A DNA stretch of 63,638 bases, the filler included, from Folioceros fuciformis (taxonomy: Eukaryota), in NCBI GenBank assembly GCA_049999805.1. It is 9 parts of 9 records of this genome, joined end to end, with 100 filler letters (N's around TTAATTAATTAA, not from the genome) between each part and the next. Parts side by side here need not be neighbours in the genome. Positions count along the whole stretch, not along the records: positions 1 to 19,489 come from JBNGIO010005991.1; 8 more parts are not named here. The stretch is one strand, 5' to 3'. Shown here one piece after another: positions 1 to 62,324 of this stretch (its first letter is position 1; each line of letters starts with the position of its first letter). The position numbers and the translations under genes were made by a program. The notes beneath the pieces were generated by a model, which made no database searches, was not told the origin of the DNA, and saw only the letters and a list, made by a program, of their open reading frames with translations.

Positions 1-890
1 CTTGCAAACGGGCCCGAATTGGCTGAAATCTGTCCAAGATTTGGGGCGCTGGTGTAGAATGTCCGCAGATGAGTGCCTCTGTTCTCCTCTGCCTCTAATC
101 TCGAAATCCCGCTATTGTGCCCATCCTCACCAACACCAGATCTGGTAGAAGAAGGCAGGTGAACAGGGAATTCAAAATGGTGAGGGGCAATCAAATTGCG
201 AGATGCCCCTCTAAGGAACAGCCTAAGAAATTCACTGCCTAAGTCTTCAGCAGCGTGTTGCACCCATCTTGGTGCTGATCCTAGGCCAAAGAAGGCTGTC
301 CGAGGGAGAGGAGGAGGGCGAGTCTGCCTGGGCAATCGCCCCTCAGAATGGCGAGAAGACCGGTTGCTGGATCGACGGGATCTCGCCATAATTTTGCTGG
401 TCTCAATTTTGAGCGCAAAAGAGGCAAGGCGCGTGTTGTGGTTGAGCGCGTGGGGGGCAGAACGCGTGCTGAGGCTGAGCGCGCGGCGAGGGGAGAGGCG
501 CGGGTGCCTCTTCCTTTTATTCTCAGCCACATCGGGCGCAGCACGCTCGATATCATCCAAACATATGGAGATTCTAAACGTGCCCGAAGACAAGGTTGTG
601 TAGAGCCCGTCTCGGTCAAAACTTCATCGTCAAGCGCCCGCGGGTTGGATCAGGACTCGGATGGGGGTCCGACCATGTGCTCATTTTTTTTTCCTTTTTG
701 TTTGAAGGCTTGTATAGCCTAGACACTCTATTACCTAGATATGCTAGAACTATAAACCTTCCTTGTCCTAGAGATCATCCTGCCTAGAGTCTACGAAGGC
801 TAGCAAACATGCTGCCTAAGCATACTAGTGCACGGAATCTTCTAGAATAAAAAATGAGCATAGGCTTTTTGGAGCATGGCTCTGATACCA
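1..890 (-). mobile_element. 5' internal region of a second family-A unit sharing the 891-1097 LTR (tandem), continues off window
   Basis: 1-890 matches 6818-7716 with a few substitutions and indels. A second PBS (890-878) lies directly after the LTR. Confidence 0.9.
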
Positions 891-1097
891 AGTTAGAAAT
901 GCTAATGCGGAAGAAGATGCACCGAAGATGATCTATTAGCAAGTGAATAGGTGGATACAAGGGTAGGCCTTAAATAGCGGTAGCGAAGGGGTGTGTCCTT
1001 TAACTAGCCTGTCAATTAACTAACTACACTTATAACTAGGTCTAGTTTGACTAACCAACGTGATACAGAACCACGTGGTCTGCCTTATATTCTAACT
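891..1097 (-). repeat. LTR (shared: 3' LTR of the full unit, 5' LTR of the next unit)
   Basis: PPT on one side and PBS on the other. Terminal inverted repeat AGTTAGAA...TTCTAACT. Confidence 0.92.
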
Positions 1098-1350
1098 CTC
1101 CCTCTCAGACACGTGCTAGTTGCTGTGAACTGAGAGCTCCTATGTTCAAACGGAGATCACCGCCGTTGACGCCAAGCTTCAAACACCTTCAAATCGGCTG
1201 TCACCAAGAGTCGGTCGTCCTCACTCTTGCAGAGTCTGTAGTCTACAGAAACTCTCAAAGTAGAACACCACTCCAGAGACCAGAAGAGAAGCATGTTATC
1301 TGGTCTGAAACATCAACCCAAGTGACGGAATAAAGGTGTAGTGTAAGGTC

Positions 1351-4300
1351 CTACCATATGAGTGACTTATCTAGTGTCATGTAAGTACTACAATCCACCA
1401 ACCCAAGCCCTTCTCGGTGGTAAGAGTGTTTAAACTTGGGCAAGGACTTGGTAAGTACATCTGCTGTGTTGTCGTCAGTAGGGATATACTGAACCTTGAC
1501 GATACCTCGCTCAGCAGCATCCCTTATATAGTGATGTTGTATCTCTATATGTTTGGTGCGTGCATGAAAGACGGGGTTAGCAACCAAAGCAATCGCGGAC
1601 ATGTTATCACAATGCAAGATAGTTGGCCCTTCTTGCTTCATACCCAAGTCTTCGCAAAGCTTCCTTTCCCATTCAGCCTCCTTTGTAGCTTCGGTAAGAG
1701 CCTTATACTCTGATTTTGTTGAAGATAAAGAGATGGCTGCTTGTTTTCTACAAGACCAGTTAACTACGGAGGAGGTGGCGAGGAAACAAAAGGCTGATAT
1801 GCTTTTGCGGGTATCAGCGTCTGAAGCCCAATCTGCATCTACATAGCAGGTGAGTTGGAGACGCTTCTTTCCGCTGGGTTTATAGCAAAGACCATAATTG
1901 GGGGTACCCTTGAGGTACCTCATGATACGCTTGAGGGCTACCCAGTGAACCTTTCCTGGGTTCTCAGAAAACTGAGCAACTGCATTTACAGTGTTGGAGA
2001 TATCAGGCCTTGTTTGATTACTCAAGAACATAAGAGTACCTACGGCCATAGGATAAGGGATATTCTCCATCTCTTTCTTGTCTTCTTCAGACTGTGGACA
2101 TGAAGCAGAAGAGAGCTTAACACCAAAGGCACCAGGTGTGGTAGACGCCCTTGCATTCTCCATGTTAAAACGTTTGAGCATACCGACTACATATCTACCC
2201 TGGTGTAGGTAAATAGCGCCTGTGCTATCTCTATGTACATGCATGCCAAGGATATACTTGACCTTTCCTAGGTCCTTCATTTCGAATTCCCTGCTGAGGT
2301 CAGCCTTAATCTTGTTGACTAAGTCTACGTTGTTCCCTGGAATGACCAGGTCATCAACATAGAGGGCGACTAGAACAAGTGAGCTATCCTTGCGCAGCAC
2401 ATAGATATTAGTATCAGCTTCGCTTTGGACAAATCCTATTTTCTTAAGGTAAGAGTCCATCCTCTCATACCACAAGCGTGGGCTCTGCTTGAGTCCATAA
2501 ATAGAGCGGTTGAGTTTACACACCTTGTGTGGGCATGCCTTGTCTTCGTAGCCCTCAGGTTGATCCATGTAAATCTCTTCCTGTAGATGACCATAGAGAA
2601 AGGCCGTGCACACATCTAGCTGATAAATTTCTAAGTTTAGTTCAGCACATAATGCAAGGAGCATCCTCACGGATGCAGCTTTAACTACGGGTGAGTAAAC
2701 CTTATCGCCCTGATAATCAACTCCCTCTTTTTGACTATACCCCTTAGCCACTAATCTCGCTTTGTAGCGGATTCTAGGCTCAACTTCCTGAAACTTAGTC
2801 TTAAGAACCCATTTGCATTTGACGGTCGATCTACCCTTGGGCAGGCTAACAAGAGACCAGGTATTGTTTTTGATTAATGAGTTATACTCATCATCGACGG
2901 CCAGCTTCCATTTAGCTGCCTCAGGTCTTGAGTAAGCCTCCTGTAAGGTTAAAGGATCTCCCTCTGCAGTAGCAACACTTAAGGCATAGGGGAAATCCAT
3001 AGAATCACCATAGGTTAGATGAGCTTGATTAAACTCAATGTCAAATGGTAGGTCCTTCCAAAGATGTCTAGGCTGACGCACACGAGTAGGATATCTACGC
3101 TCGGGAGCAGCTGGTGGCCTAGGAGGGGATGAAGGAGTGGCGGGTGCTGGAATAACTTCATGGGGCACCACGAGATCATAATGAACATGTTCAACATCAC
3201 CTTGTTCCATAGGAAGGTCCTCCACTACAGCGTCGTGGTATATCTCCATGTCCCCCTCTCGAGCAGGAACTAATGGCGCAGGAGCAGGCTGCATGTAAGG
3301 AACATGACCAGCAGCTGGCGGCAGTGGTCCTGCTAGAGGGATAGGAGCCACAGGAGGAGTAGGAGGAACACCATCAACGGGAAAGGAAAAGGGTTGAACA
3401 TGGTGGTCAAGAGTGAGGTCACCAAGGGAGCGTGGAGTGCTAGAGCCAGAGGAAGCACCATTGGGGATGCCAGGAGCAATCTCCAAGGATGTCCGGAGGG
3501 CAGGCACTATCTTGGCTTCATCAAAGGTGACTGTGCGCGCATAGATTAGATTCCGAGTGGCCATGTCCACGAGCTTGTAGGCTTTGCGATCATCACCATA
3601 GCCGACAAAAACTAGCTTCCGAGCACGAGCATCAAGCTTGTCACGGTGCTGTGAAGGGACAAAGGCATAGGCAGGGCAACCAAAAACACGAAGATGTGAG
3701 AGTAGAGGCTTGCTCCTGTGCCAGCACTCGTAGGGTGTACGGCCTGAAACCGCCTTAGTAAGGACCCTATTCTTAATGTAAGCCGCCGTAGACACAGCCT
3801 CAGCCCAATAGGACTTGGGCAGCTGAGACTGAGTCAGCATGGCACGAGCCATGGACATCAAATCGCCGTTAGCCTTCTCGGCCACGCCATTCTGCTTGGA
3901 GGTGTAAGGTACAGTGAACTGGCGCAAGACACCACGCTCCTCGCAGAAGGCACGAAACTGAGGGTTGTTGAGCTCTCCCGCATTGTCGGATCAAATACAT
4001 CGAAGTTTACGACCAGTCTGTAACTCGGCCATAGCAACAAAGGGTGAGAACACATTAAAAGAGTCACTCTTAAGGCAGATGGGAAACGCAAACGTATATC
4101 GACTGAAGTCATCAACGACAGTCATAAAGTGGTTAGCCCCGCCTAAAGACGCAACAGGGAGAGGACCACAGAGGTCTACGTGGACCAAGTCAAGAGGCGC
4201 AGTGGTCCGACAAGCAGGAAGAGAAGGATAAGGAGAACTTCGCTGTTTAGCAAGCACACAAGCCTCGCAAAGAGGAGGTGTTGACGAAATTCGGGGAAGC

Positions 4301-5979
4301 TTATCGCGATACAAGTCCTGCTGAGTCGTGGCCAGGAGCCGGGCTGGATTAAGATGTCCAAGCCGACAATGCCAAAGGAGAGCATCACCTGGGTGGGATC
4401 TCCTTGAAGGCTGGTCTCCATGTGAGGGAACCGCCAGGGAGGTAGCCGCCGGAAGCACGGGCTGACCTGTGAAAACATACAAGTCATGACGCGGACGTCC
4501 TCTAGCAACAACCACACGAGGGTTAGAAGACCGATATAGAAGACAATCGCCTGAACCAAACTCTAGGCGAAAGGAGCCGTCCTTGACAAGCTGTCGAACA
4601 GAGATGAGATTCTTGGCCATCTGGGGAACATGTAACACATCAGTAAGCATCATGTGGGATCCATCAGCCAGAGTGAAGGCGACGGAGCCAATCCCCGCAA
4701 TGGAGAGGCCAGAATCATCTCCAAGAAGTACGAAGCGCTGAGTGTCAGCAGCCGCCTCATACGTGGTAAACATGGTCTTGTGACTACAGATGTGCGCGGA
4801 CGCAGCAGAATCAAGCAGCCAGGACTGCCTGTACTCAAATGCCACAAGACACACGGTGAGAGCAATTCCAGGTTGAGAAGGATTCTTGGCCTTAGTCGAG
4901 ACAGTAGCCGAGTTGGCAGTACGAGGCTCTCGCTTGGCCTCACCAGCTTGCTTCTTCCTGCACTCCCTTTCCCAATGACCAGGCGTTTGGCACCAATTGC
5001 ATGTGCCTTGACGCTTCGTGGTCTTGGAAGAGGAGCCAGCCGAGGGAGCAGGCTTGTCGGAACCGTGGGAATTGTTCCTGTGTTGAGGTTTTGTAGAATT
5101 CTTACGCTGTTGTTGACGTCCTTTGGCGACGAACATAACCCGGTCTCCTCCGTGTTTTGAAGTCCTGACATTGAACCTGGCAGCCTCCTCTTGAAGGAGA
5201 GCTCCAGCTATCTCGGACACGGTGATGTTGGGTACCATACCCGACTGCACAGCCTGATGTGCATTTCTCACCGTTTGGTTTTGTGAGGAGACAAAGGTCT
5301 GGTAGCTAGCAGGGAGGCTAGCCAATAACTGAACAGCCGCTTCAAATTCTGTGATGGTTGTCCCTAGAGCAGCAAGCTGAGCCCGTAGATATCTAAACTT
5401 GCTAACGTGTTGAGCAACGCTATCATTATGACCCATACGCAGAGAGTAAAACTCTAGACGTACTGTGACCAACGTCATAACGTTAGTAGATTGATAGATA
5501 TCAGTGATTTGCTTCCAAGCTTCTGCTGATGTGGACGCACCATCCGTGTGGTGTAATGTAACCTCGTCAAGGCCAGAGATCAACATCTGCATGGCTTGAC
5601 GATCTTGACGAACCCAAGCGTCAAGGGCAACCAGATTACCGATGGGCTTGGGAAAAGTTCCTTCAACAATTGGGAGAAGATCCCTTGTGTTGAGGGCAGT
5701 CTTCATGCGCTTAGACCACACTTCAAACTTCGTGCCGTTAAATCTATCCTTTTCCTTAAAATCAGTGTTGATGTTAACGATATTGAAGTAAGGTTGGAGG
5801 CCTACTGTTGGTTGAGGTGGTATAGGGCCGGCTGGACCGCCAGGAGGTGAGGTGGGTGGTGGACTGCCCATCGGCACGCCCAAAGGTGGTGACGGGGGTC
5901 TGGATCCTTGCCGTGATGGTGACCCAAAGGGCCCCGCACCTAGACCAAACTCGGACCCGGAGCTAGAAGCGCCTGCCAT
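1351..5979 (-). pseudogene. copia gag-pol polyprotein with one in-frame stop
   Basis: CCHC CNWCQTPGHWEREC, protease WLLDSAAS, HHCC WHCRLGH..CEAC, INT VHVDLCGP/SDN, RT YVDD, RH DADWA. A single TGA at 3993-3991 replaces Arg (LRCI*SDNAGE; the copy near 39160 reads RCIRSDNAGE), and the frame continues. Confidence 0.93.
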
Positions 5980-6138
5980 CTTTCATGAACTTGTCTTCAA
6001 CTCGTAAGCCGACAATATGTTGTGACACAAGGCCGAGAGTACGAGTTAAGAACAAAGCACGAATTACTTATAATAAGATTATTACTCCTTAACTCTTAGA
6101 GTCCAACCAACATAGTTCCTCTCTTGATACAAGTGAGC

Positions 6139-7206
6139 CTAAGGGAGTGGAGAAGGTTCAATAGGTTGCTCGCTAACTTCAGTAGAGGGATCTCTCACTT
6201 CAGCACTTTTGGGGCTTGACTCAAGGCCTTGAAACTCTTGAAGTTGAGTTGCCAAGTAAAGGAGGTCTTCGTTGGCGTTGGCCACTGATTGCCAAAGAGT
6301 GAGTAGTCTATCACGTCGAGCCGGGGGATCAAGTGACGTGAGAGGATCGCCGCACGAAGCATAAATGTCTTCAATTGATTTCCGTCGAGGATGGATGCGC
6401 ATCGCCAATCCACGATGTCGAGTAGGCAAGGGATCGGCCTCTATCTTCACGGGTGCGATGCTGAGTCCTTCTCCACGCGACTGCAGGGGAGAAATTCCTT
6501 GAGAATTCTGCAAAAGAGCAAACAAGGGAGACTCCTCTAGGTGGTTGGGGGCCTCTCCGCTAAACGGAGCTGACAAAGAACCGGTGCCCGTTAAAGAAAA
6601 CGGTGCCCGCGCCGGTTCGCCCTGCGAGCCGCGACACGGGACCGGTGCCCACGCCGGTTCGGCCGGCGCGCCGGTTCGCCGCGGGCTTGACTCCGAGCGC
6701 GTGTGCACGTCGGCGCACTCCGCTACGAGGGCGCCCTGCTGCAGGGAATGCAGAATGGCGTCGCAGGTGCGGCCAAATCCAGTAGAATGCTGATCGGGCC
6801 GGTGCGCCTCCCCCTGCCTTGCAAACGGGCCCGAATTGGCTGAAATCTGTCCAAGATTTGGGGCGCTGGTGTAGAATGTCCGCAGATGAGTGCCTCTGTT
6901 CTCCTCTGCCTCTAATCTCGAAATCCCGCTATTGTGCCCATCCTCACCAACACCAGATCTGGTAGAAGAGGGCAGGTGAACAGGGAATTCGAAATGGTGA
7001 GGGGCACTCAAATTGCGAGATGCCCCTCTAAGGAACAGCCTAAGAAATTCACTGCCTAAGTCTTCAGCAGCGTGTTGCACCCATCTTGGTGCTGATCCTA
7101 GGCCAAAGAAGGCTGTCCGAGGGAGAGGAGGAGGGCGAGTCTGCCTGGGCAATCGCCCCTCAGAATGGCGAGAAGACCGGTTGCTGGATCGACGGGATCT
7201 CGCCAT
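6139..7206 (-). CDS. Extra ORF (about 355 aa) upstream of gag in family-A copia, unknown function
   Basis: Open from ATG 7206 (MARSRRSSNRSSR...) to stop 6139, same sense as gag. The second copy (ATG 389 to window edge) keeps the frame, with 2 synonymous and 1 non-synonymous change. Confidence 0.65.
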   Translation of the reverse strand: MARSRRSSNRSSRHSEGRLPRQTRPPPLPRTAFFGLGSAPRWVQHAAEDLGSEFLRLFLRGASRNLSAPHHFEFPVHLPSSTRSGVGEDGHNSGISRLEAEENRGTHLRTFYTSAPNLGQISANSGPFARQGEAHRPDQHSTGFGRTCDAILHSLQQGALVAECADVHTRSESSPRRTGAPAEPAWAPVPCRGSQGEPARAPFSLTGTGSLSAPFSGEAPNHLEESPLFALLQNSQGISPLQSRGEGLSIAPVKIEADPLPTRHRGLAMRIHPRRKSIEDIYASCGDPLTSLDPPARRDRLLTLWQSVANANEDLLYLATQLQEFQGLESSPKSAEVRDPSTEVSEQPIEPSPLP

Positions 7207-7716
7207 AATTTTGCTGGTCTCAATTTTGAGCGCAAAAGAGGCAAGGCGCGTGTTGTGGTTGAGCGCGCAGGGGACAGAACGCGTGCTGAGGCTGAGCGCG
7301 CGGCGAGGGGAGAGGCGCGGGTGCCTCTCCCTTTTATTCTCAGCCACATCGGGCGCAGCACGCTTGATATGATCCAAACATATGGAGATTCTAAACGTGC
7401 CCGAAGACAAGGTTGTGTAGAGCCCGTCTTCGGTCAAAACTTCATTGTCAAGCGCTTGCGGGTCGGATCAGGACTCGGATGGGGGTCCGACCGTGTGCTC
7501 TTTTTTTTTTTCTTTCCTTTTTGTTTGAAGGCTTGTATAGCCTAGACACTCTATTACCTAGATTTGCTAGAACTATAAACCTTCCTTGTCCTAGAGATCA
7601 TCCTGCCTAGAGTCTACGAAGGCTAGCAAACATGCTGCCTAAGCATACTAGTGCACGGAATCTTCTAGAATAAAAAAAAATGAACATAGGCTTTTTGGAG
7701 CATGGCTCTGATACCA

Positions 7717-7923
7717 AGTTAGAAATGCTAATGCGGAAGAAGATGCACCGAAGATGATCTATTAGCAAGTGAATAGGTGGATACAAGGGTAGGCCTTAAA
7801 TAGCGGTAGCGAAGGGGTGTGTCCTTTAACTAGCCTGTCAATTAACTAACTACACTTATAACTAGGTCTAGTTTGACTAACCAACGTGATACAGAACCAC
7901 GTGGTCTGCCTTATATTCTAACT
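7717..7923 (-). repeat. 5' LTR of family-A copia
   Basis: Identical by eye to 891-1097; followed on the minus strand by the PBS. Confidence 0.92.
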
Positions 7924-8670
7924 AAGGTATAGAGTACTCCGTTGCCTCCATATGTGAAACTGTCGAGCAAAGATTGCCCAAGTTTTGTGGAGGACAAAGC
8001 TGAAATGGAGAAGGTTCCATACTCATCAACTGTAGGGAGTTTGATGTATGCAATGATTGCTACACATCCTGACATTGCCTTTGCAATGGGAGTGGTTAGT
8101 AGGTTTATGTCAAACCCTGGCACGAAGCATTGGAAGGGAGTGAAAGGAGTTATGAGGTACTTGAATGGTACGAAAGCTTTGTGCTTATGTTTTGGTAGTG
8201 AAGATGGATCTGTCGTGGGATATACGGATGTTGATTATGCGGGGGATATGGACAAAAGGAGGTCCATATCAGGTTATGTCTTCATGTGCACAAGAGGGGC
8301 AGTCTCATGGCGATCTTGTTTGCAATCGTGCATAATGCTATCTACCACAGAGGCCGAGTATGTTGCAGCGACTGAGGCGTGCAAGAAAGCCATGTGACTT
8401 GCTCGTTTAGTGGGAGATTTGGGGATCAGGGTTGAGCTGCTAGTGTTGCATTGTGATAGCCAGAGTGCTATCCAATTAGCGAAGAATCTAGTGTTTCATG
8501 CGAAGATCAAACATGTGGAAGTGAAGTATCACTTCATTCGAGAGGTGTTGGAAGACAAGAGGGTACAACTTGTCAAAGTTCACACCAATAAGAACCCTGC
8601 AGATAGTCTTACCAAGGGGCTCTCTTCGGAGCAATTCGCACAAGCTCGGACACTCATGGGCATGAGGTAG
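7924..8670 (+). pseudogene. Older copia RT/RNase H 3' fragment, interrupted by the family-A insertion
   Basis: PYSSTVGSLMY, LSTTEAEY, LHCDSQSAI and KHVEVKYHFIRE motifs, with a stop at 8395. PPT AAGGGGGAG near 8702-8710 is followed by an LTR-like region with TATAAATA near 8868. Confidence 0.9.
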
Positions 8671-10170: not shown

Positions 10171-13100
10171 CTATCCTGGAAGAAGGTTGCCAACTATGTA
10201 CAGCCTTTCGTCCTGTGCTATCAAGTCAGTAGAACGAAGTTCACCTCCATCTCCATTCAAGATGAAGGACCGAGTGCCCCCGAATTGCTCAACGGCCATA
10301 TCCAAAAGCTCTTCAATGGTCCCTGGTGCCCAGACAACCACCCCTACTCTCCATTTCTCTTCCTCACTCCAAGGATGGTGAGGGAAAATCGTAACTCGTC
10401 TGGGTACAGGCAATTCTCCCTTAGACCAAAATTTCTCAGCGGATCTGTTGAAGGGACTCGACGAATACCCACTTGGACGATCACTGTCAATTCCCCATTC
10501 CAAAATTTCAAGCCCATCAGCGTGCTTCTTACGTTCGTCCTTCTCCTTACTTCCATCCTTCTCGAACCTTACTTGTCGGTATGAGACATCTGTTTCGTTG
10601 GACTCTGGATTGGGTCGAGATAGCTCAGCCTCCGCGGATCCTATCCCAGAATTTACAATATTCGTCCCTCCGCGCACCCGGTCAAGCATGGCTTCGATCT
10701 GTTTCTTCCTGACAGCTGCTGCAACTATGGAATCTGCTCCGGCACAGGAGAGAAGGGACAAATTTGTCAGCGCTTTTCTTTCAGAAAAATTTGGGCTTAG
10801 ATCACAGAACTAAGAGTCGACAAAATACCAAGAACCATCGCAAACTGCAAACGTGTTAGGACCTGGTGTGCAATCCCCTTTCTCCGTAAAGGCGGGTCCA
10901 GGAAGACCAGCACCATGGGACGTGAATTCTAAGCTTTGGTCATCCATATTGCCTGATGTTTCCAAGAGAGTGACTACTGTTCCGTTGCCTGTTCTCCTCG
11001 CATCCTCCAGGGGAGTATTCCCCCATCTGCACAGTTCATCAGATGCGTCATTGGCTTGTCAGATCTAGAGGAGCATTCCCAAGTACAATAGCGACCGTTG
11101 AATCTTGAAGAAATGCAAGCAACCACCTGTCTTTTGAATTGATGTTAGCTCCAGCGCCTACCAGAACACTCGCAATCAAATGCAACCCTTCGGATGCTGC
11201 AACGTGAAGGGGAGTTCGGAGATCGTAATCAACAGAGTTGGGATCAGCTCCATAAGCAAGCAGGCGCTTCAGAAGCTCTATGTCTCCACTCATTGAGACA
11301 TTGCAGAGGAAAGCCCCAGCCTCTTGGAGCAGCAGACGTGCACCCTTCTCGTACAGGATTCCTGCCGTGACATCATGGCCACCTTTTAGAGCTTCCAGTA
11401 AAGGGGTGATGCCATTATTATCTGCAAGATAGACACACAACCGGAATAACAGTCAGCGAGACACCATGGCATGTGTAGCCACTATTCCCCACGCAACGGG
11501 CACTGTTAGAGTCTGCTGTAACATTGGAGTCACATACCTATGGCGTTCAAATCTGCCTTCTCACTAATTAGGAACAAAACGAGATCCTTGTGTCCCCTTG
11601 CAGCCGCCAAGTGCTGCCCACAATGTTAAAATAAGGAATGAGCGAGCAGGGAATACCTCTTGCGAAAGAAAGCACAGCATAAACACAAAATGAATGTTAT
11701 TAGCCAATCCAAGTTTCACCGGTGCATATGCAGGAACATACAAGAGCTGTTCTTCCGTCATAGTCTGTCCTTGTGGGATCTGCACCAGCCTTGATGAGTT
11801 GTCTCACATGGCTTGTGTCTCCTTGATGAGTAGCATGGATCACCATGAGAGCTAACTCGGCATCCTGTTTAGACAGCAAATAATTTATGTCTGCTGCTCT
11901 CTGTCGTAGTCGATCATCAGATTGCTTGCCCTGGAAACAAAGCAGCTGCACGTTAAGGCCATGCTAGTAACCAGGCAGACTGCAGCTGTAGGACGGATCA
12001 GCACGCGCTGGTTAAATTTTCGTACCACGAGCAAATTGTTGATTATCTGGCGTCCATCCAAGTAGTAGATTTGCAACAAGTTCGAAAAGGAGTGCTTATC
12101 CAACCGAAGCAACTTACACAGTTCAGCCACTCGAACTGTGTAAGGCTGAGGAACATTACAGAGCACGGCCACTTCACCAAACACGCCATATTCTTCCAGC
12201 TGGGCAACTGGTTTTTCAATCCCATCCTCCCCTACCACAACTTCCTCCTGCAGAAACCATGTTTCAAGTTAACGCGTTCAGGCTAGAAATGGTGCCGTGG
12301 CGTATCACGCGGCAGAATGCCTACCAACAATCCATATGAGATTATGTACAATTGGTCTGCTGCATCTCTTTGCTCCAAGATCACTTCGCCAGGTAAGAAA
12401 AATTCTTCCCGTACTCTAGACACCTGCCAACAAGAAATGATAAACGAAATTTACAAGACGGACATTAAGGGAGAATTAGTGTCGGGTGCAAATACACGAG
12501 CATCATGGGTCTCAGTCTTCAGTCTCACAATTTGACTGATGAATTCGCTGGTGCATCCTTTAAATAAGGAGACTCGCTCCACTGTCCCACGATAGAGTTC
12601 TTGAGCAACCTGTAGGCAAGAACATGGTTTACAAAAACCGTGGTTCACCTCTAGAACATTCACGATACCCCACAAGCATTGATCTGCAAGTCAGACAATG
12701 AACTGGGTGCTGTCATGAAGATGAGGCGAAACTGACTGGCGAGACGCTTTCTACATTGAGGTGTGCTGGACAACGAACCTTAGCCCGAATGGTTACCGGA
12801 AAGTCTTCGATGATACTATCATTCGTCATCTTGCTTTCGAATTGCAATCGTACATGACACTTCATTTGATGCCTTAGATGCTTATCAAGAGAGTTTCTGT
12901 TCATATACTTGACAAGCTCAGCCATCCTATCTCGAAACTTCTCAGTGTTAGAGCCTTTGACAATTAGTGCTGTCATGTTGCCAATGAGGTATGCACCCAG
13001 GATCATGTCGACGGAGGCAAACAAAATAATAAAGAGCATCTCACGATTGTTAACAGCATGGATATCACCGTAACCTGTCAACAACGAAGCTGGACTTGAA

Positions 13101-14514
13101 TCAAGCCTCGGTTGTGCACCAAGGCAAGATGATGCTTGATCTTTCAACACAGAAAGTGGCAACCCAAGAAATTTTCGCTGGAAATCAGACAGGATTTAGC
13201 ACCGCCAATCCACCTGCAGGGTTTAGGGTTTAGGGTAGAGCCAAGGCACAAAACGTACCTATGGTTGCCATTGTAATGATGGCCCAGTATAGAGATGTGA
13301 CATATCTTATACCAACGTCAACATGTCGGAAATTCTGATATGATCGATCCCCGAGTTGCAGGCTTCCGATCCAGGTGTCAGTCTCCCGGTCTTGCGGGAC
13401 AGTGGTTGCCAGATAATGAAATAAACAAGCCGCAACATGGGTACAATAGAACTCCACGAATATGAGCTTGAATATTCTGGTAGCGAAGTAATTGACACGT
13501 ATGTCTTTCTCCAAAGCTTCAAGGAAACCTGTAACCTTCCGGACACGGTACAGTCGCAACCACACTAAATACCTAACCTCCTCATTCCGACCTGTAGCCT
13601 GTGAATGCCGTAGCCAATTTCTTTTGTCAGATAATGCCAAGAACAGCTCAGAGTAAACAGGTGGCCACAGCCATTTAAATCCTCCTCAACAACTAGAATG
13701 AGCAGAGCTATCTCTCACAAGCTGCTAGCTACGGACTAGTCACCTTATAGATACAGTCCCAAGGTAGGCAAGCAAGAACATCTGGTAACAAGTTGCTCTT
13801 TGCATATCTGCGAAACCGGGTTGCGGAATGCAACTGAATGAGAAGTAGCGTGACATCCAGGAGAAACGTGAAACACGATCCGGACAGAGTGTTGATGTGA
13901 TGTGCGATGTCAGTACGTGATGGACACATAACCAGACATGCAAGCATACCTGACAGCGATAGCCCGGAAGTCAGTGACCAATCTGTATGTCTCTACATCT
14001 TTGAATGCCACGAAAAACGTGATAATAACATCAGCAAGAAACAAAAGCTGTACAAGAATGTCCGTCAGTCCCAGTTCCCGTGGCAGTCCACGAAAAAACC
14101 CGAACTCAAATGGGGTGAATAGTGAGGAGTACACTGCCAACAGGAGAACAAATTTGGCCCACAAAGAGTATTTCCTGCCGCAAATAGGAAGCTCATCTCG
14201 TTAGCTCACATGTGGAAAGAACAGTTAGAAGGGAGCATCACGCAAGGAAGTACTTGTTAAGATGAGTTAAAGATCGACAGGCAATGGATCTCAAGTGACT
14301 GCAGCTAAACTCACAGACTGCTTGGTTGAATAATCCATTTGTGTGTTATGTTGAGAGGCCCAGCACGGATGTCTAGTCCGCTCCGATTAACAGCAAATTC
14401 TCTGACGATTTTAGTGAGGCGTCCCCTGATAGAGTGCTCTAGAGGATCATCAAAATCTTGAACCTCAAAATCAGAATTTTCGTTGTCTGCGGGAGACTGT
14501 TTCGACCAGACCAT
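10171..14514 (-). CDS. SKOR: Outward-rectifying Shaker K+ channel (SKOR/GORK-like), 13 exons, about 937 aa
   Basis: GT-AG exons: 14514-14315, 14174-13950, 13807-13744, 13598-13259, 13074-12779, 12609-12529, 12423-12325, 12247-12026, 11930-11742, 11613-11538, 11421-11127, 11026-10863, 10733-10171. Phases are consistent (2814 nt). Motifs: FTPFEFGFFRGLP, pore TMATIGYGDIHAVN, DMILGAYLIGNMTALIVKGS, cNBD, ankyrin repeats, C-terminal KHA domain. Confidence 0.95.
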
Positions 14515-23825: not shown

Positions 23826-24252
23826 TGTCACCAATGTGCTCATAGTTTGCAAAGTGGAGGGGGGCGGTGTGCGGTGCGCAAGGCATGGCTTGACGGAGGT
23901 TTGACGGACGGTGGAAGCAATGAGCCCCCCACGGGGGGGCTCGAAAGTCCACACATGGGCCAAAGTGGCCGATATGTGCTTAGGTGTACAGAATGCCTAA
24001 CGCGGGAGAGGAAGCAACTAATCCGGCTGAGCTTAGGTGGAAGAATACAGTGCCTGAGAAGGAGGCTCAGGTACGGAATCTTGAGAATGACACCGCTCGT
24101 GGGAGGCCCAATGAGGGCGCAAATACGGAATCTGCCTCGACTTTGACGAATGAGGAGGCCGGTCTTCAACTTGGTCCTTTGGCAGACATCCTTACCGAGG
24201 AACGCTTTTTTCAACAAGAGGAGGGTAGGTTGTCAGGTAGCTCGGCGGTGGG

Positions 24253-24873
24253 GTGGCTCTCTGCTGGAGGACCGCCTTTAGTAGGCGAGTTGGAGGAATG
24301 GATTACTTCGGTCATAGGGTGTCCCCCACTTATGTCTTCTTGAAAGAGGGCGGTTCCTTTCAGGTTAAATGTGATGCAGTTGCTGGGGCCCGTGCGCTCC
24401 TGCAAACAACACAACCCTTCAAAGGCTCAACTCCGGTGATGGTCAAGGCATGGTCTCCCAGAAGCACGATCATGCAATCCCAGATCAAGAGGCATTTCGT
24501 TTGGGTGCGGCTGCCTGCCCTACCGGTGCAACTTATTCCACTAATCAACAGGATGCTAGAAACAATCGAATGGGTGGTTGAGGTACCACAGGTGGACTCC
24601 CGATTTTTTGATAGAAGCAAGCCTCCTCGCTTTGGTGTAAGAGTAGAAGACATCTATTCATTGCCCGCTGGGGTAGTAATTTGTGACCCTGCAAACTCTT
24701 CAAAGAGCTACACTCAGCTCTTTGGTTACCCAGGTCTGCCTGTAAGGTGTGGTGTTTGTGGTCTGACTAACCATCTTAAGCTTGATTGTCCGCTCCGCTC
24801 AGGGCCAGAAGGCAGGTGTGTAAGCTCTGTGAAGGCCCAGGTTGAACCCCTACCGGGGTTCCAAGGAGTTTAG
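24253..24873 (+). pseudogene. LINE ORF1 core (DUF4283-like region plus CCHC knuckle)
   Basis: VKAWSP..FVWVRLPALP..YPGLPVRCGVCGLTNHLKLDCP, typical of plant L1 ORF1. Confidence 0.85.
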
Positions 24874-27800
24874 AAGAAACCTTGGAGAGCTAACTTGGCA
24901 ATGCAGCGATGGGCCCGCCGAATTCAAGAAGATTTCTTCCCGAGGCTCGTGGACGCAACCATCACTCAGGTGAAACTTTGTGTTATATGCGGAAGAAGGT
25001 GGAGAGCACCTTCTACTACTCGATGCCGAAAGGGGAGGAGATGCAGGCGTTACCTACACGGTCATTGCAGCTAGGAGTAGCGGATGAGGTCCGACCGGCT
25101 CGGCTGTGGGAGACTGTCAGGAGGAGGGCCATGAGTATCGTTCAAGAGGGTATGGGGTGGATGAAGATTACACAAATGAACTTTCAAAGGAGGCTAGGTT
25201 CAGTGCAATCTGTCATCGTATTGAAGGTTTCTCAGCGATTCTTTACTTCAGCACACTGTTGGACTTGGGGAGGGAGAGTTGGATCCCGATCTCCAACAAG
25301 CCTCAATGGATGGGGGAGTTGAAGGTGCTGGCCTTAGTCAAAGATGCTAAGTTTGGCAGAGGCTAGGTCACTCTTGCCACCAGAGTAGCATTTAAAGCTC
25401 ACTTGGGTTTCTTCGGTTTGCTAACCTCGCCGATCACAATCAAGCTTCCAGGAGAGTGGGAGCTCAGGTGGAAGGAGGATATGGAGGAGGAGCGGGCTGT
25501 GCCAATGGACGGCGAGACTCGAGAATTGGTTCCCTCCCATCAATCGGGTCCGCAAGAAGTTTTGGATCAGTAGGAGCAGGGGCAGGTTGCCTTGAAGACA
25601 AGTATAGGCACTGAATCTAAACCCAGGTTGCCGACAGATGCAAAAACGATGCAGGGGGATATCTCCTCTCAGCAGAGACCCTCAGGTGACTTAAAAGGCG
25701 GTCTGGCTGGAGGCAAGGTGTTTAGAGATGCAGGTCGTGGGCGGACAAAGTTGCACAAGAGCACCCCCTTCGCATCGTCAGAGGCAAGGCCAGGTAATTT
25801 CCAACAGTTTGGGACACGTATTGCAAAACCATAGCGACTTGTTGTAGGAGCCAAGGAGTTGGAACCCTCGCAAGAGATAATCAGGTTCTGGATGGGAGGA
25901 ACCACAAGGGTGCAAGGGCGAGGAAGGATAGGAAGCGAGGTGTTTCTTTGCTGTGCAAGCAGCAAGACAGAACCCCCTCAGTCTGTAAGAAGCCTTTAGC
26001 TGAAGTTTCTCCTTTCCACAAGGACGTGCCTAGTGAGCTGGTTCACTACCTGTCAGGACGGCCAGGGAAGCATGCTGGTGTAGACAGGATGAGCTCAAAG
26101 GCTGGAGGAGGGGATTCGGGCCACCGCCTCCCTGGTGGGGTGTCTAACTTGCTGCTGGCTGGAGTGCCTAGAGGCACTGCTCATTCCCCTTCAGGGAGGG
26201 GAAACCACGAGGGTGGAATCAACGGGGAGGTGCCTGTGTTTGGTGGCAATAGGCGGTGTGAATCACAATGGGTAAGAGTGGCGGATGGAGAGGAGCAGCT
26301 TTCGAATCGACCCCTGTCCCCATTTTTGAAGCAGAAGGGTCCCCATGGGCCTGAGGAGGGTGGAACAAGCTCGGGCGTTGGGAGTGCGGTGCTGCTCAGT
26401 GGTCACGGCAAGCCTAAGCGGTGCTTGGGTGCGCAAGGCGGCTTGGATTAGCAGGATAAGGTGAAGATCCCCCCCTTCGACTGGATGGAGACAGACCCAT
26501 GCAACTGCCAGCAACGTGGGGCTCTTCTCGCTCCTAAACAACCGTCAGGAGCAGGAGCCAAGGAGGTGGAAGCCTTGGAGAGGTCTAGCCATGTTCCGAA
26601 CGGGAAGGACCGCAAGGGTGCTGGGATGAGGAGGGACAAGGAGCACGTTGATCCCTTGCTGCGCACGATGTAGGATAGAGTCCTTTCCGTTGGTTACAAC
26701 CCTGTGGCTGATGTTCTTCCAGGACGTGAGGATGCGACTAGAGAAAGCGGTTGCAGCTTACTAGGACGGCCTGGGGATCATGTGCATCCAGACAAGAAGA
26801 CTTCAAAAGTTGGAGATGAAGTTAGTCGTTGGTTTTCTTATTCTGGCGAGGAAGGTAAGGAGCAGCCCTCCTTTCATCTAGAAGGCAAGCAGGAGGGTCT
26901 CGTGTTTGCTTCTTATGGGGTGGAGCATTGGGAGCTTGCCTCCCAACGTGAATCTCCCCCTTCTGCCCAGGATTCGGCCCACCGCCTCACCGATGGAATG
27001 GCGGATATAATGCTGGATGGAATGAATGGAGGTGCCCCACACACCTCCTCAGCAAGGGGTTTCCACAAGGAAGGAAGCCACAATGTGGTCACTGATCTCG
27101 AGGACAGCAGAAGGCGAGATGGTGTAGAGCCAACATCGAGTCGACACCAAATCTCGCTCATGGAGCAGCAATGTCTCCACAAGCCAGCTGGGGATGCTAT
27201 GCTTCCGCAAGGCGGATATACCGAGCGGACCAGTGGGTTTGGTGAAGCTAGGCGACCTTTGGGATGCGAGCCGGCTGGTAATCGGGCTGAGATACCACAG
27301 GACTTGCTCCAGAATGGAAGTATGTGGCAACTATCCCGACATAAGGAGGATCTTGGCGCAAGGGTGACTGCTCTTAGCTAATCGGATTGCTTAACGTGCA
27401 AGAGCCTAGGGGGAGCCTATGGGGTGCCTTTGGACAAGCCTTCTCAAGATGGAAGCAGGAGGGAAGGAGGCTGCGGGGACAATCCAGACTCTAGGGTGAA
27501 TGTTCCAGGCCAACCAGTCTTCATGTCGGGCAAGCGCCTAGTGAGAACTCCTAGGGCACCTCTGAACAATCTCCCAGGAAAAGGAAACAAGAACGAAGGA
27601 GTTTGAGCGACGATTCGAGGTATTGGGGACAGCAAGAGACGAGGTCCGCAACACGAACTCGTGGCACACCTTACACTGCCAAATCAAGGCTGTCATTAGT
27701 CCTTGTGCGCGGAGTCGGAAGGGAGGTTTTTGACTCTAAAGGGAGGAATGAACAAGGGAGAGGGAAGCTCCCAACCGACCTGGGTGGACAGTGTTCCTAG

Positions 27801-30587
27801 GAAATATTTGAGCCTTTCTAGCGATGACAGGCTTATCGGGTTACCACAGGAAGGGAGTCTGGTGTACGATCTGGAGTCTTTGGCTAGGCACAAGGAGGGG
27901 GACAGTGTTTTCGCCCCAACTTCAAGCCGTACTGTAAATGAGTTGTGCCTGGCTTGGCCTGGCTTGGAACCAGAGGTAGAGGGCGGGAGATTGACAGCAG
28001 CTGGCGCAGGCTGTTCAGGCAAATGCGCACACAAGCTCAAGAAGGATTTTAAGACTGAAGGCGGTGCGCGCTCTTTGGTTGCCCATGCAAATTCGGGAGG
28101 CCAATCTGCTTATGCTCCAGGCGGAACTGAAAGTGAGGTTGACAAGTCTTGCACCGACTCAAAATTGGTGGCAGAGTATGGGAGCATGGAAGGTGTTGGT
28201 GCAGTTTTCTCCAGCAAGTTTCATGCACCAAATCACTCGGAATTGGCATCTGGGACCAATCTGGTGCGTAGCAAGGAAGAGAGCATAAAGGAAACAGATC
28301 AGCTGCATGGGCGAGGGTGCTGTCAATCTCACCTGGCTGGAGAGCAGCAACTAGATAGACAGGCAAGGGATTTGTTGGATCGTTTAGATCCTAGTAGGCT
28401 GGACGTGGCTAGCACGACATAAGGGCCATCTCTATGCCGCAGTGGGGGGTCACAACTGGATACCGGAGACTCTGATGCTCAAGCAAGTGCTCGGGGTATG
28501 GAAGAAGCTACCTTATCTATGATGGGTCGACGTGTGAAGGGCGATGCTCGGGATCCAGCCTCAGCGGTTGGGCAGAGTGAGGAGGTGCAAGGTCCTGGCT
28601 TGACATCTCTGCATCAAACCCACAGGTTGGATGTGCGTAAGGTTGAAACTTGCAACAAGAACCCGATGGTTCCAAGAGGGTCGAGCTATGAATTGTAGGA
28701 CCCTAGGAAGGAAGGAACTCGGCCCAAAAGATGGAGGGGAGAAGGGCAAGTTGCAAGTATATCTAAGGCTGCCATGGACCATTTAGAGGGTGTGCACGGG
28801 GTGATTGGGGAGGAAGGGATGGTGCAAGAACATGCTAGGAGAACTCAAACTGTTAGTAGCCCCAGTCACTTGATCACCAGAGTCGGGCTCCCTGTGAGCT
28901 GTGCACCTATGGGGGAAAGGCAGCTCCCAGACGTGGATAAGGCACAAGATACCCAGGAAAGACAGCCCCTAGATGCGGATAAGGAACAAGATACCTAGAC
29001 TGGGGCTAAGTTCTTGGACCCCCCCCCCCCCCCCTCCAAGAGGACAAGGTGTTAAGGGAGATCTGTGATCCACCCAGTGGTGGGGTAGGTCAAGTGGGCA
29101 GGGTGTGCTGTAGGAGGCTGGGACATATGGCTACCACTCAACACGAGGTTCACATAGAAAGTGTTGGCAAAATGGAAGTGAGTGGGATTCTTCAACTACA
29201 AGCTGAGCTGATGAACGAGATTCCTGAGGAGTTAAGTGCTGATGCTAGTTATGGCCAAAGGACCTTGGATATGGTCCCCATCGTGCGCTGTGGTTCCAAA
29301 CCTCCTCAGGATAATCTTTGCTATCCTGAGTCTAAACTTTGTAGTAGGCACACTAGCCTTCCGCACGGAAGGGAGCTCGGGGTTGAAGGTTTTCAGGCGC
29401 CCAAGCCTAGCACATCTCTCGGCAGGGGCAAAGGGAAATGCACCCGTTTATCTAAGAACCTCCCAAGTGTAACTATGCGACAAGATCAAATTGCTTAGGC
29501 TGTGGCGCGGAAGGTCCTTAACAAAGCTGTGCAGCGATGGGTTCAGGCAGCTACCTCGCCCGAAGGAAAAAAGATCAGAGTGGATAAGGGGGTGGCACTA
29601 GCTGGGCATGAAGAGGCAAGAGTGGACGTTGTGGGCCAAGGCCTAGGTAATCTCGGGGGGATACCCCCCCCCCCCCCCCCCCCCCGTGTGACCTGTCTTA
29701 GGGGCCTGGATATGGACAAGGATTACACCAAGGAGGGGGGTGGCAAAATTAATGACTATGAGCCCCTTGATAACATTTGCCTCAGTCCACCCGGGAGACA
29801 CATAGCACCCCCCAGTTCTCAGAAGGAGTTCTTCTCTACACCCTGCGCAGATGAGGAAGTTGAGCCAATCTAGCATGAAGTGCCGGTAGGATTTTCTAAT
29901 GAAGAAGGGACAGCCACAGCCTTTAAGTTAGATGACAGCACATGTGGCCAGCCAGGTGACTTAGCGGGGTGGGGTTTCGGCTCCAGGAAGCCTGAAGCTT
30001 CCCTCCCCACAAAAAATGAAGTACCTAGGATTCCGCCTTGTGAGGCCACTCCGAAGTCTATAAGTGTGGCAGTGGTTAGGAAGATGAATGGAGTGAATCA
30101 ATTTCTAGCCATGGCTGTTCCAAAAGGAGAAGTGGTGCCGGTGTCCATTGTTGCAAAGCCATCACGCACACTAAAGGAAAAGATCTTCCGTATGCTGGCA
30201 GCAGGAGAGTCTTGGTGAGCAAAGAAGGAAAGGAAGTTGAGTACTTTAGTGGTGTGTACGTGTTAGATGGACAGCAATTCGTGGACATCCAGCTCAAGGA
30301 GGCTACTGCTCTGGCACTTCCCTTACAGGCGGAGTGGTGGTGGAGCTTTTCAGCCCCGTGGGGGAATGGCTACGATGGGAAGTTGCAGGATCAAGAAGGA
30401 AGGGGAACCGGCTAGGTTATGGCACAGGAGGACACGACTGCTTTCGCTGAGTGAAAATCAAAGCGTCTACAAAAGAAGTTGCAAGAGCGCAAGACGAGCG
30501 ATCCTCAGGAAGCAGTGGTGGGGAGGGGCAGCATTCAGACGCTGAAGCCCAATGCAGTTCGGAAACTTTTGAGCAAGCAGGCTAACA

Positions 30588-32713
30588 TTGATGGGAATTG
30601 ACAGGCTGAGGAATTACGAGCGGGGGACTCACTTACAGGTTATTACTTGGAATGTGCGTGGCTTGGGAGGTTGGTTGAAAGCTGCATCAAAGTGTCACAG
30701 GCTACAACATCTCCTACAAGAAGACATCACCTGGGATGTGGCATGCATTGAGGAACACAAACTTTTAGCTGACCACATACAGCACATCAAGAAAATTTTC
30801 TTGCCAGGGCGTACAGTGTGGGTTCGGGCACGATCTGTAGAAGAAGGAACTTGTTCTTACTCTGGTGACTATGATTCGGCCACGAGGGGGGGAGTTGCCA
30901 TTATGGTCCATCCGGAACAAGCACACAATGTGCTAGAGACAGGGCAAGATGAAATGGGTAGATTTGTCTGGGTGGTGTTGCAGACTGCTCAAGGCCCCCT
31001 GGGCATTTGCAACATCTATGCTCCTAATACAGGGTCGGAGAGGAATCTCCTGTGGGGTCAACTTGGTGAGCATTTGAGTGATCAAATACCCTGCATGATG
31101 GCGGGAGACTTCAATTTTGTGAAAAGGCGTGAAGACATCTAAGGGGTCAGTGAGGTTGATATACGGAGGGTTCCCTTGTCATGGCAGGAGTTGAGGGACA
31201 CTAAGCTGAATGTGCAAGACCTATGGCTGGCTCTTCCAAGACACCGCCATCAAGACTCGCTCATGTTCAGCTGGTCCAATCAACAGCATGCATCTTATGG
31301 GGCTCGAAGGCTGGATAGGTTCTATGTTCCCACAGGGTGGCTACCATATGTGCAGGAATATAGTATTCTAGTGGGTACAGTGCTATCAGACCACCACCCG
31401 ATTAGCTTGCATCTGCAGCTCTCCCCCAGAGACCTTCAACACAAAAGGGACAAGAAAGGCTTTCGGATGAACACCTCCCTTTTAGCAAAAGAGGGTGTGT
31501 ATGAGCACATCAAGGATCTATGGCAAGGAATAGAACAAGGAGATGAGTCGGGTGTGCAGAGGCTTATGAGTGCAAATACCAAAGCCACCAATTTTCTGAG
31601 GAGACTAGGTTTACAGCGCAAGAAGGAGAAAAGCCGGACAGAGGACTTCCTTCGGGATGAGTTGGGTTTCGTCCAAAGAGCAGGAGAAGTGCGTGCGCTT
31701 ACTTGTGAGGAGGGTCGGCTCCGGGAAATACAAGGCGAGCTTGCAAGGCTAGAAGAGGATAGAGCCAAGGGATGGTACAAACGAGCTAAAGTCAAATGGG
31801 TGCAAGAAGGAGATTTCCCTCTAAATTCTTCTTCGACAAGGTGGTAGCGAATCAGCACAAGTCAAGAATACCCGCTCTCCCGGACGGTTAGGGCATCATG
31901 CAAGATTCCCTTAGTGTCTTGAAAAATCTAATCACCTATTTTTATGTAGGGATATTTGCAAGTCTCGGGAAGTTGGTAGGGTGGGAGGATCTCTGGAGCT
32001 CATCCTATGGTCAATTTCCTGCCAAAGTGACAGAGGTGCAACGTAGTGTTCTTGACAAACCTATCACAGCGGTTGAGGTGGCTCAAGCACTGAAGGAGAT
32101 GCCGAGGAACAAATCCCTAAGGCATGACAAAATTCCCCCTGAATTTCTGGCTTGGGGTTGGGAGTTTATGAGTCCGCTTTTCATGGAGGCAGTCAATACG
32201 ATCTGAGAGGAAGGTAGTATGGGTCCATGGTTTAACCTGGGCCTCATCTCCCTTTTACCTAAACAGGATGCTAGTCTCTCCATTTCTAATTGGCGACCCA
32301 TCACCCTACTTACAACAACTTACAAAGTGATTGCTAAAGTCTTAGCAAACAGGCCCAAGCCCTTTTTGGACGAGTGGTTGGAGGTGGAGCAACGGGGTTT
32401 CATCCAAAACAGGTGTATTCTAGATAACTTGCTGCTTTTGCGACAGGCTAAGTATAATGCTCTGTATCATCACAAACCAACAGTGTTCATTTCCTTAGAT
32501 TTCTACAAGGCTTATGACTCTATTGAGTGGCACTTCCTCTGGAGATGCCTGCGAAGCTTTGGTTTTGGCAACAACTTCTGAAGGTGGATTGCAGTTCTCT
32601 GTGAGGATGCAGGCGCAATGGTCTCTGTCAATGGCTCCTTTACCGACAGGTTTGATATTACGCGTTCGATTCGGCAAGGTTGCCCTCTGGCCCCGTTCCT
32701 ATTCATCATCGTC
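30588..32713 (+). pseudogene. LINE ORF2 (endonuclease-RT), broken by stops and frameshifts
   Basis: Fragments 30588-31142, 31176-31847, 31898-32206, 32219-32581 and onward carry EN and RT motifs in the expected order. Confidence 0.92.
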
Positions 32714-37950: not shown

Positions 37951-38019
37951 TGTGGAGGCAAAACCCCGGGCACTGATTGCCAACGGGTTCCACCTTTAGT
38001 GGCCACACTTATCCCACTG
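37951..38019. mobile_element. Second copy of the 19028 LTR-like terminus, nested in copia gag
   Basis: 69 nt identical to 19028-19096, up to the gap. Confidence 0.8.
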
Positions 38020-41740: not shown

Positions 41741-41958
41741 GAGTGATCCAGAAGCAGAGCCGCTAATCGGCACCAGCAAAGCCGCGATAGATAGAGACGC
41801 CCGCAAACCTCAACCGGCAAAGGCTTTCCGATTCTCCCACTACCTCTCACCCCGCACCNNNNNNNNNNNNNNNNNNNNNNNNNNNNNNNNNNNNNNNNNN
41901 NNTTAATTAATTAANNNNNNNNNNNNNNNNNNNNNNNNNNNNNNNNNNNNNNNNNNNN

Positions 41959-46758: not shown

Positions 46759-46858
46759 NNNNNNNNNNNNNNNNNNNNNNNNNNNNNNNNNNNNNNNNNN
46801 NNTTAATTAATTAANNNNNNNNNNNNNNNNNNNNNNNNNNNNNNNNNNNNNNNNNNNN

Positions 46859-62224: not shown

Positions 62225-62324
62225 NNNNNNNNNNNNNNNNNNNNNNNNNNNNNNNNNNNNNNNNNNNNTTAATTAATTAANNNNNNNNNNNNNNNNNNNN
62301 NNNNNNNNNNNNNNNNNNNNNNNN

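Follow-up and report, generated by a model that had tools for sequence, protein, structure and literature searches.

The closest described counterparts of the ORFs reported here are the extra ORFs (eORFs) of LTR retrotransposons. The REXdb survey (Neumann et al. 2019) counts 582 Ty1/copia elements whose eORFs reach 250 codons or more, these eORFs falling into 45 unrelated groups, and defines a forward 5′ class, eORF-5′F; the passages of that paper considered here call only the 3′ eORF of SIRE characteristic of a copia lineage (PMC6317226). This env-like ORF is reported there from 74% of SIRE elements and falls into 19 unrelated groups (PMC6317226). Upstream ORFs are also described in Ty3/gypsy elements. 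A Medicago family of Ogre, which uses a tRNA-Arg primer, carries a 1527-bp ORF upstream of GAG (PMC2533021), and a plant mobile domain is present in the eORFs of 57% of Ogre elements, according to the survey (PMC6317226). Rice Retrosat2 is described as having an orphan ORF0 upstream of its retrotransposition genes, which diverges strongly among homologous elements while the main ORF is conserved (PMC3485330). Among reverse-transcribing viruses, rice tungro bacilliform virus (RTBV) and the badnaviruses place one or two ORFs (I and II), which are without internal AUGs, ahead of the polyprotein ORF, and ribosomes scan about 900 nt; for RTBV, the upstream starts are given as weak (AUU, or an AUG in moderate context) and the ORFs as abutting or overlapping (PMC5902531).

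We analysed a 63,638-nt stretch of DNA from Folioceros fuciformis (assembly GCA_049999805.1), hereafter the window, in which three copia elements (A, B and C) each carry an extra sense ORF (ORFs A, B and C) upstream of gag. Like eORF-5′F, these are forward ORFs upstream of the polyprotein, without a conserved domain and variable between families, but the passages of the survey considered here describe no 5′ copia case, no Arg-rich start and no ATG depletion, although its additional files may list copia cases (PMC6317226). ORF A, with 355 codons, lies above the length limit of that class (at least 250 codons), which neither ORF B (236) nor ORF C (78) reaches; ORFs A and B are free of the repeats that the class excludes (at least three monomers over more than 150 bp). 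Ogre ORF1 resembles them in being a lengthy sense ORF placed after the 5′ LTR and ahead of gag. Ogre, however, is a very large Ty3/gypsy element of the Tat clade primed by tRNA-Arg, whereas the elements here have a copia gag-PR-INT-RT order and a tRNA-iMet primer-binding site (PBS), and their ORFs have no Pfam domain. Hallmarks of the Tat clade are an RT that precedes INT and an extra aRH domain; the copia domain order and the lack of a Pfam match in the ORFs place our elements outside the Ogre/Tat ORF1 group. Retrosat2 differs in being a gypsy element with LTRs longer than 3.2 kb, element A being a copia element with an LTR of 207 nt (PMC3485330). The SIRE ORF is likewise a heterogeneous extra sense ORF in a copia lineage, but it lies 3′ of pol, and the position of the present ORFs between PBS and gag sets them apart from the SIRE type.

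The ORFs are a variant of the extra ORFs already known from LTR retrotransposons. Copia elements are as a rule portrayed as carrying gag-pol alone, with splicing as their known expression device. Within the texts that it covered, our literature search turned up no paper on a copia 5′ ORF or on leaky scanning in this superfamily, and the portion of a review of additional ORFs that it took in describes no copia 5′ case (PMC7264820).

Layout of the three copia elements

The content of the window is plant-like, with PLS-type PPR genes that carry an E motif, and it includes several copia elements and fragments. The PBS motif TGGTATCAGAGC, assigned to tRNA-iMet following the PBS type given in the survey (PMC6317226), has four matches in the window, all four exact, against 0.35 expected; a count of four was reached in 0 of 100 shuffles. 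Two of the matches belong to family A, one for each of two tandem units (7716-7705 and 890-879), and the others to B (59713-59724) and C (43928-43917). Every match marks a copia 5′ end and lies 5′ of an extra ORF on the strand of gag, and the order PBS, ORF, gag on one strand holds in elements A, B and C, that is, at all three copia 5′ ends in the window. This bears out the layout proposed in an earlier note on this DNA, which had placed an extra sense ORF between PBS and gag in three distinct copia families. Translation recovered all three ORFs in place and reproduced the peptides that had been read from them (Table 1), and gag identities of only 28-39% between A, B and C indicate that these are indeed distinct families. 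Comparison of the three leaders showed the PBS to be the only sequence that they have in common.

Within the window, element A alone combines an LTR pair with a PBS and a polypurine tract; no LTR pair was found there for B or C. By sequence reading, the 5′ LTR of element A has 8-nt inverted termini (AGTTAGAA/TTCTAACT) and a TATA-like TATTTAAGG. Its polyprotein frame is interrupted only once, by an in-frame stop within the integrase core (3991-3993), and shows Pfam matches to PF14223, Pol_BBD, gag_pre-integrs and, below threshold, rve, followed by SH3_retrovirus and RVT_2, with the integrase ahead of RT as is typical of Ty1/copia. The LTR follows the pol stop after only about 250 nt. Because a PBS, a leader and a copy of ORF A come right after the middle LTR, the two family-A units form a tandem LTR-internal-LTR-internal array, in which the second copy of ORF A runs off the window after 389 nt.

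Elements B and C both have Pfam matches to PF14223 and Pol_BBD. In element B, a match to the RNase H end (62325-62891) follows directly on the gag-protease region, and this copy is therefore internally deleted. All of the element copies are defective, A through its integrase stop, B through its internal deletion and C through decay.

Table 1 Features of the three copia elements in the window
Feature	Position	Strand	Basis or remark
Element A, 5′ LTR, 207 nt	7717-7923	-	Direct repeat of 891-1097, 0/207 differences
Element A, PBS, tRNA-iMet 3′-end type	7705-7716	-	Exact match, abuts LTR end
Leader A upstream of ORF A, 498 nt, 8 ATGs	7207-7704	-	ATG list
ORF A, 355 aa	6139-7206	-	Translation; open frame extends 5′ as far as 7437
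Spacer between ORF A and gag, 159 nt	5980-6138	-	Sequence, ATG list; 2 ATGs (5- and 7-codon ORFs)
Element A, gag-protease-integrase-RT-RNase H	1351-5979	-	Translation and Pfam; single 1542-codon frame
Element A, polypurine tract GAGAGGGAGAG	1096-1106	-	Sequence reading; adjoins middle LTR
Middle LTR, common to two tandem family-A units	891-1097	-	Direct repeat
Second family-A unit	1-890	-	PBS 890-879, leader 878-390, first (5′) 389 nt of ORF A copy
Element B, PBS	59713-59724	+	Exact match; upstream LTR partly N-masked
Element B, 8-codon short ORF	59730-59756	+	ATG list; stop overlaps both ORF B start codons (ATGATG)
ORF B, 236 aa	59753-60463	+	Translation; Arg-rich start, C-terminal helix
Spacer between ORF B and gag, 393 nt	60464-60856	+	ATG list; 4 ATGs (3-9-codon ORFs)
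Element B, gag-protease	60857-62224	+	Sequence and Pfam; gag start 60857
Element C, PBS	43917-43928	-	Exact match
ORF C, 78 aa	43353-43589	-	Translation; Arg-rich start
Element C, second leader ORF, 94 aa	43053-43337	-	Same frame as ORF C, two stop codons between
Element C, gag	41960-43036	-	Start 43036; frame change near 42820-42850; cut by N mask 41859-41958

Coding signals in the extra ORFs

We compared the longest ATG-initiated ORF of each leader with those in 2,000 dinucleotide shuffles of the same leader. The 355 codons of ORF A stand against a shuffle mean of 88 and the 236 codons of ORF B against a mean of 72, and neither length was reached in any of the 2,000 shuffles. The longest ATG-initiated ORF in leader C has 94 codons (shuffle mean 57, P = 0.066), and ORF C is shorter than this; a length of 78 codons does not exceed what chance gives, and ORF C would at best be what decay has left of an ORF of the A or B kind. 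No stop interrupts the frames of ORFs A and B, whereas the other five frames contain 10-17 stops in A and 5-15 in B. The only tandem repeat is a 30-nt array of period 8 inside ORF A, with none in ORF B; the two ORFs are no artefacts of tandem repeats. A codon-usage log-odds score trained on the gag-pol and PPR genes of the window was highest, among the six frames, in the ORF frame of all three ORFs. Three-base periodicity was weak (3.0 in ORF A and 1.7 in ORF B, compared with 4.2-8.6 in known genes).

The Arg-rich starts to which the earlier note had drawn attention stood out when the ATG-initiated ORFs of the whole window, 201 on the two strands with a length of 50 aa or more, were ranked by N-terminal arginine. 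ORFs A, B and C take ranks 1-3, with 9, 9 and 11 Arg in their first 30 residues, and the next-ranked ORF has 8. The enrichment is specific to one frame: the other two sense frames over the same starts encode only 0-4 Arg, and the CpGs of the first 90 nt fall mostly at codon positions 1-2 in each ORF (7/1/0 by codon phase in A, 6/1/1 in B and 4/2/0 in C). Judged from sequence, these starts are the best evidence that the three ORFs may be alike in function without being similar in sequence. Similarity itself did not materialize. BLASTP among the three proteins detected none, and the tails that had been called similar aligned locally no better than shuffles did (P = 0.62, 0.59 and 0.10), so that a shared tail motif (LATQLQEFQGLE and the like) was rejected and homology among the three proteins found no support.

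Behind its Arg-rich start, the ORF A protein is predicted to be mostly disordered, with a C-terminal helix. Single-sequence AlphaFold models were poor for both long ORFs (mean pLDDT 41.8 for ORF A and 38.8 for ORF B), and their best-scored parts were the C-terminal helices, at 294-329 in ORF A and 167-221 in ORF B. Small Arg-rich proteins that bind RNA or enter the nucleus and have a helical interaction region include retroviral Rev, Rex and Tat and the cucumovirus 2b protein. The ORF proteins share with them an Arg-rich stretch (9-11 Arg in the first 30 residues); no homology to such Arg-rich-motif regulators was found.

Searches for homologues were blank. The proteins of ORFs A and B had no match in a word search of 5.8 billion proteins at near lengths or among JGI metagenome contigs, and phmmer found none for ORF A among 1.84 billion representatives. 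Sequence searches of the ORFs against Pfam, PHROGs and the PDB returned nothing at threshold, leaving ORFs A, B and C without a Pfam domain, and antisense and other-frame ORFs of the leaders likewise gave nothing at threshold in the domain and PDB searches. As a control query, the gag-PR-INT region of element A retrieved only 20 proteins, at 23-28% identity; because gag too is without close relatives in these collections, the blank ORF searches are uninformative on conservation within the family.

We put the probability that ORFs A and B are genuine upstream cistrons at roughly 0.45. Each would then form part of the full-length genomic RNA as a cistron placed between PBS and gag, genuine now or until very recently, and would encode a small, family-specific protein whose Arg-rich N terminus is followed by a mostly disordered middle and a long C-terminal helix. 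This protein, as we infer from the Arg-rich arm, would most likely bind nucleic acid, for example in chaperoning, packaging or trafficking the RNA of the element. The earlier observation is partly confirmed, and its interpretation as an accessory basic protein in a copia lineage partly supported: such a protein is plausible for A and B, given the frame-specific length and the frame-locked Arg-rich start, but a gene shared by the lineage finds no support, given that the ORFs have no mutual similarity and that their leaders share only the PBS; C is weak.

A different reading holds that the frames are by-products of long, fast-changing leaders, made of captured or newly formed sequence and yielding no useful protein. 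It would accommodate ORFs that are orphans in all homologue searches, the lack of similarity among the three ORFs and, PBS apart, among their leaders, the low confidence and predominant disorder of the models, and one diverged relative contig that loses similarity inside ORF A. It is also in keeping with published accounts, in which eORFs of LTR retrotransposons appear as highly heterogeneous and of questioned function (PMC6317226) and capture events as typically limited to one or few copies (PMC7264820). We nevertheless consider it unlikely, because it leaves unexplained why stops are missing from one frame only, with 0 of 2,000 shuffles as long, why the three highest-ranked Arg-rich starts of the 201 ORFs, each tied to its frame, come from three unrelated leaders, and why out-of-frame ATGs are rarer than codon shuffles predict (see below). 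Were the ORFs neutral, the ATG-free leaders would remain informative on the translation of Gag behind 1.1-1.7 kb of leader.

Start codons and the route to Gag

Long stretches inside ORFs A and B are free of ATGs, a signal that is new to the present analysis. Among 2,331 inter-ATG intervals on both strands of the window (mean 53 nt), the longest are one of 633 nt in ORF B (59756-60389) and one of 539 nt in ORF A (6941-6402). Relative to dinucleotide shuffles, ORF A contains 5 ATGs where 11.1 are expected (P = 0.013) and ORF B contains 4 where 12.6 are expected (P = 0.001). The same two ORFs show no significant depletion of CAT, CTG, ACG, GTG or TTG, dinucleotide shuffles revealed no ATG depletion in ORF C, and gag segments of equal length hold 14 ATGs against about 13 expected. 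The depletion persisted in codon shuffles, which hold the protein and its codon usage constant: out-of-frame ATGs number 3 in ORF A against 7.6 expected (P = 0.03) and 0 in ORF B against 5.4 (P = 0.0015), and four of four control coding segments lack such a depletion. Despite its 539-nt ATG-free stretch, ORF A has four internal ATGs.

An ATG-poor ORF body points to ribosome scanning and addresses the question of how Gag is made. If ORFs A and B are upstream cistrons, Gag-Pol would start 160-390 nt downstream of them and would probably be reached by ribosomes that miss or bypass the ORF start codon. Short ORFs overlap both starts, one of 83 codons in A and one of 8 codons in B, and might sort ribosomes there. 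Those that bypass the start would scan the start-codon-poor body and initiate at gag after a few tiny ORFs; the ATGs in the spacers between ORF and gag head ORFs of 3-9 codons and stand mostly in weak context. We infer both the translation of the ORFs and this scanning route from the arrangement of start codons. The start contexts of the ORFs themselves are good. That of ORF A reads ATT ATG G, with A at −3 and G at +4, and ORF B begins with GAC ATG A followed by ATG ATG G, its second ATG having A at −3 and G at +4; contexts of this kind do not favour leaky scanning. Further weak points for scanning are that the spacers are not ATG-free and that eight ATGs precede ORF A, heading short ORFs of 3-26 codons and the one of 83 codons.

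RTBV and the badnaviruses, as described, resemble this arrangement in being reverse-transcribing and in having AUG-free upstream ORFs and a leader with short ORFs and a stable structure (PMC5902531). They differ in that they are episomal DNA viruses without LTRs and have weak starts, whereas the present ORFs start in good context and are followed by spacers of 159-393 nt with 2-4 ATGs. Among the features of leaky scanning, AUG-free bodies are largely present in A and B, while a weak or non-AUG start and abutting, AUG-less junctions are not. No sequence similarity was found between ORFs A or B and RTBV or badnaviruses, and the resemblance is one of putative mechanism, not of membership.

A bolder version of the cistron reading, which we advance tentatively and think somewhat unlikely, is that a fast-evolving upstream gene for an Arg-rich RNA-binding protein is a routine part of the copia elements of this genome, that these elements make Gag-Pol from the same RNA by pararetrovirus-style scanning through the start-codon-free body of the gene, and that such genes were gained or kept independently in several families. 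If true, Ty1/copia would thereby have its first described 5′ accessory cistron and its first described polycistronic translation strategy. A 5′ cistron under the dual constraint of coding and start-codon avoidance would add both a gene class and a virus-like translation strategy to copia, and would tie LTR retrotransposons functionally to plant pararetroviruses. For genome screening, three features together make a cheap signature: a frame that stays open behind the PBS, a start rich in Arg and a body free of ATGs.

The same depletion could arise in a non-coding leader that is kept free of start codons only for scanning from the cap to gag, with the open frame incidental. Avoidance of starts, however, does not clear stops from one frame over 236-355 codons, gives no account of a frame-locked Arg-rich start right after a good-context ATG, and sits badly with the 8, 2 and 4 ATGs in leader A and the two spacers. 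We regard a purely non-coding leader as distinctly improbable, even though the ATG depletion is the strongest single signal and leader A is predicted to fold stably (7770-7190; MFE −187.7 kcal/mol, z = −4.0, with 0 of 100 shuffles as stable), structured cis-elements being described as common in retroelement leaders (PMC5902531). An Rfam search of leader A returned sub-threshold matches only.

Very unlikely, finally, is that all or most of the leader is an intron, with Gag-Pol made from spliced RNA without the ORF and the ORF read only from unspliced RNA or being an upstream exon. In favour of it, splicing belongs to the known expression strategy of copia (PMC5580714), sequence reading finds pyrimidine-rich tracts ending in AG just ahead of gag in B and C, as well as AG/GT-like sites near the ORF ends, and by their coordinates ORFs A and B both start in the gag frame. 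Against it, a candidate donor-acceptor join in B hits a stop after 5 codons, the spacer of A contains several in-frame stops, the last of them 2 codons short of gag, and splicing would need no ATG-free ORF body. Read-through or fusion with gag was rejected as well; ORFs A and B do have their ATGs in the gag frame, but several in-frame stops lie between.

Tandem copies and relatives of element A

The tandem array allows two copies of the 5′ region of family A to be compared, and the earlier note had contrasted an intact ORF with an adjacent leader that has indels. We reproduced its counts and the indel difference. Over 389 nt the ORF copies differ by 3 substitutions, of which two fall at codon position 3 and one at position 2, with one amino-acid change and no indel; the leader copies differ by 14 substitutions in 498 nt and 3 indels (Fisher P = 0.045 for 3/389 versus 14/498). 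Coding constraint did not stand up as the cause: the non-coding LTR is even more alike between copies (0/207 versus 14/498 in the leader, Fisher P = 0.014), so the contrast between ORF and leader is not specific to coding sequence and provides no evidence of selection.

In sequencing run X1, summed contig depth was 30-128 over 5888-7711, 190-883 over gag-pol and 717 over the LTR, values that are not usable as copy number, as contig depth cannot rank parts of one gene. One run, guessed to be RNA, contains two contigs that match gag-pol only, at less than 90% identity. Gapless pieces from DNA-run contigs, each 341-823 nt long and with 1-9 differences, span 5600-7213. The match of one diverged contig is limited to 5885-6062 and 6221-6328; across the stop of ORF A, 124 letters take the place of a 158-nt block, which hints that relatives may differ in this region and may not keep the ORF.

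Structure and integrity of the copia elements

On the minus strand of window positions 1-7923, family A forms a tandem LTR-internal-LTR-internal array in which the middle LTR is common to both units. The two visible LTRs are identical (0 differences across 207 positions), and the leader directly downstream of the LTR carries 14 differing positions and 3 indels between the units. Repeat boundaries place the LTR termini at AGTTAGAA...TTCTAACT, an 8-nt inverted repeat, the usual termini being TG...CA; the first AG may instead be part of the polypurine tract. In element A, of family A, gag-pol is a 1542-codon frame whose sole break is one in-frame stop, in the integrase core (3991-3993).

Within 60857-62891, element B of the second copia family passes from its protease region (to 62224) directly to the end of RNase H (62325-62891). 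Element B is an internally deleted, non-autonomous copy, and its leader ORF is still intact despite the deletion. Beside element C, of the third family, two ORFs of 118 and 117 aa overlap, neither with a Pfam match. With 8 Arg among its 30 N-terminal residues, the second ranks fourth by this count among the 201 ATG-initiated ORFs of at least 50 aa on both strands of the window.

Coordinates of features in the window
Feature	Position	Strand	Context or basis
PLS-type PPR gene, intronless	44638-46716	minus	
PLS-type PPR gene, intronless	46807-49890	minus	
Two overlapping ORFs	41053-41740	minus	just downstream of truncated gag of element C
Family A LTR termini	7916-7923 and 7717-7724; 1090-1097 and 891-898		repeat boundaries
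DUF4283	24241-24870	plus	LINE-like stretch
Endonuclease/exonuclease/phosphatase domain	30573-31139	plus	LINE-like stretch

Substitution pattern of run X3

Compared with window positions 1100-7925, run X3 shows C>T substitutions at 355 places and G>A substitutions at 327, a large excess of these two types. The run looks bisulfite-converted and could be a source for the methylation state of element A.

Host genes and other transposable elements

Both PPR genes contain internal repeats of 306-315 nt. Pfam identifies E and E+ motifs in the first, and the second ends in a putative DYW-like tail. A host gene with multiple exons occupies 10171-14164 on the minus strand; its ORF fragments seem to resemble a Shaker-type potassium channel of plants that carries ankyrin repeats.

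At 38121-40540 (plus strand) and 34162-37959 (minus strand) lie a relative of family A that is truncated at its 5' end, with 66-85% amino-acid identity, and, adjoining it, a further copia element, D; neither has retained a 5' leader within the window. A LINE-like stretch covers 24241-31139 on the plus strand.
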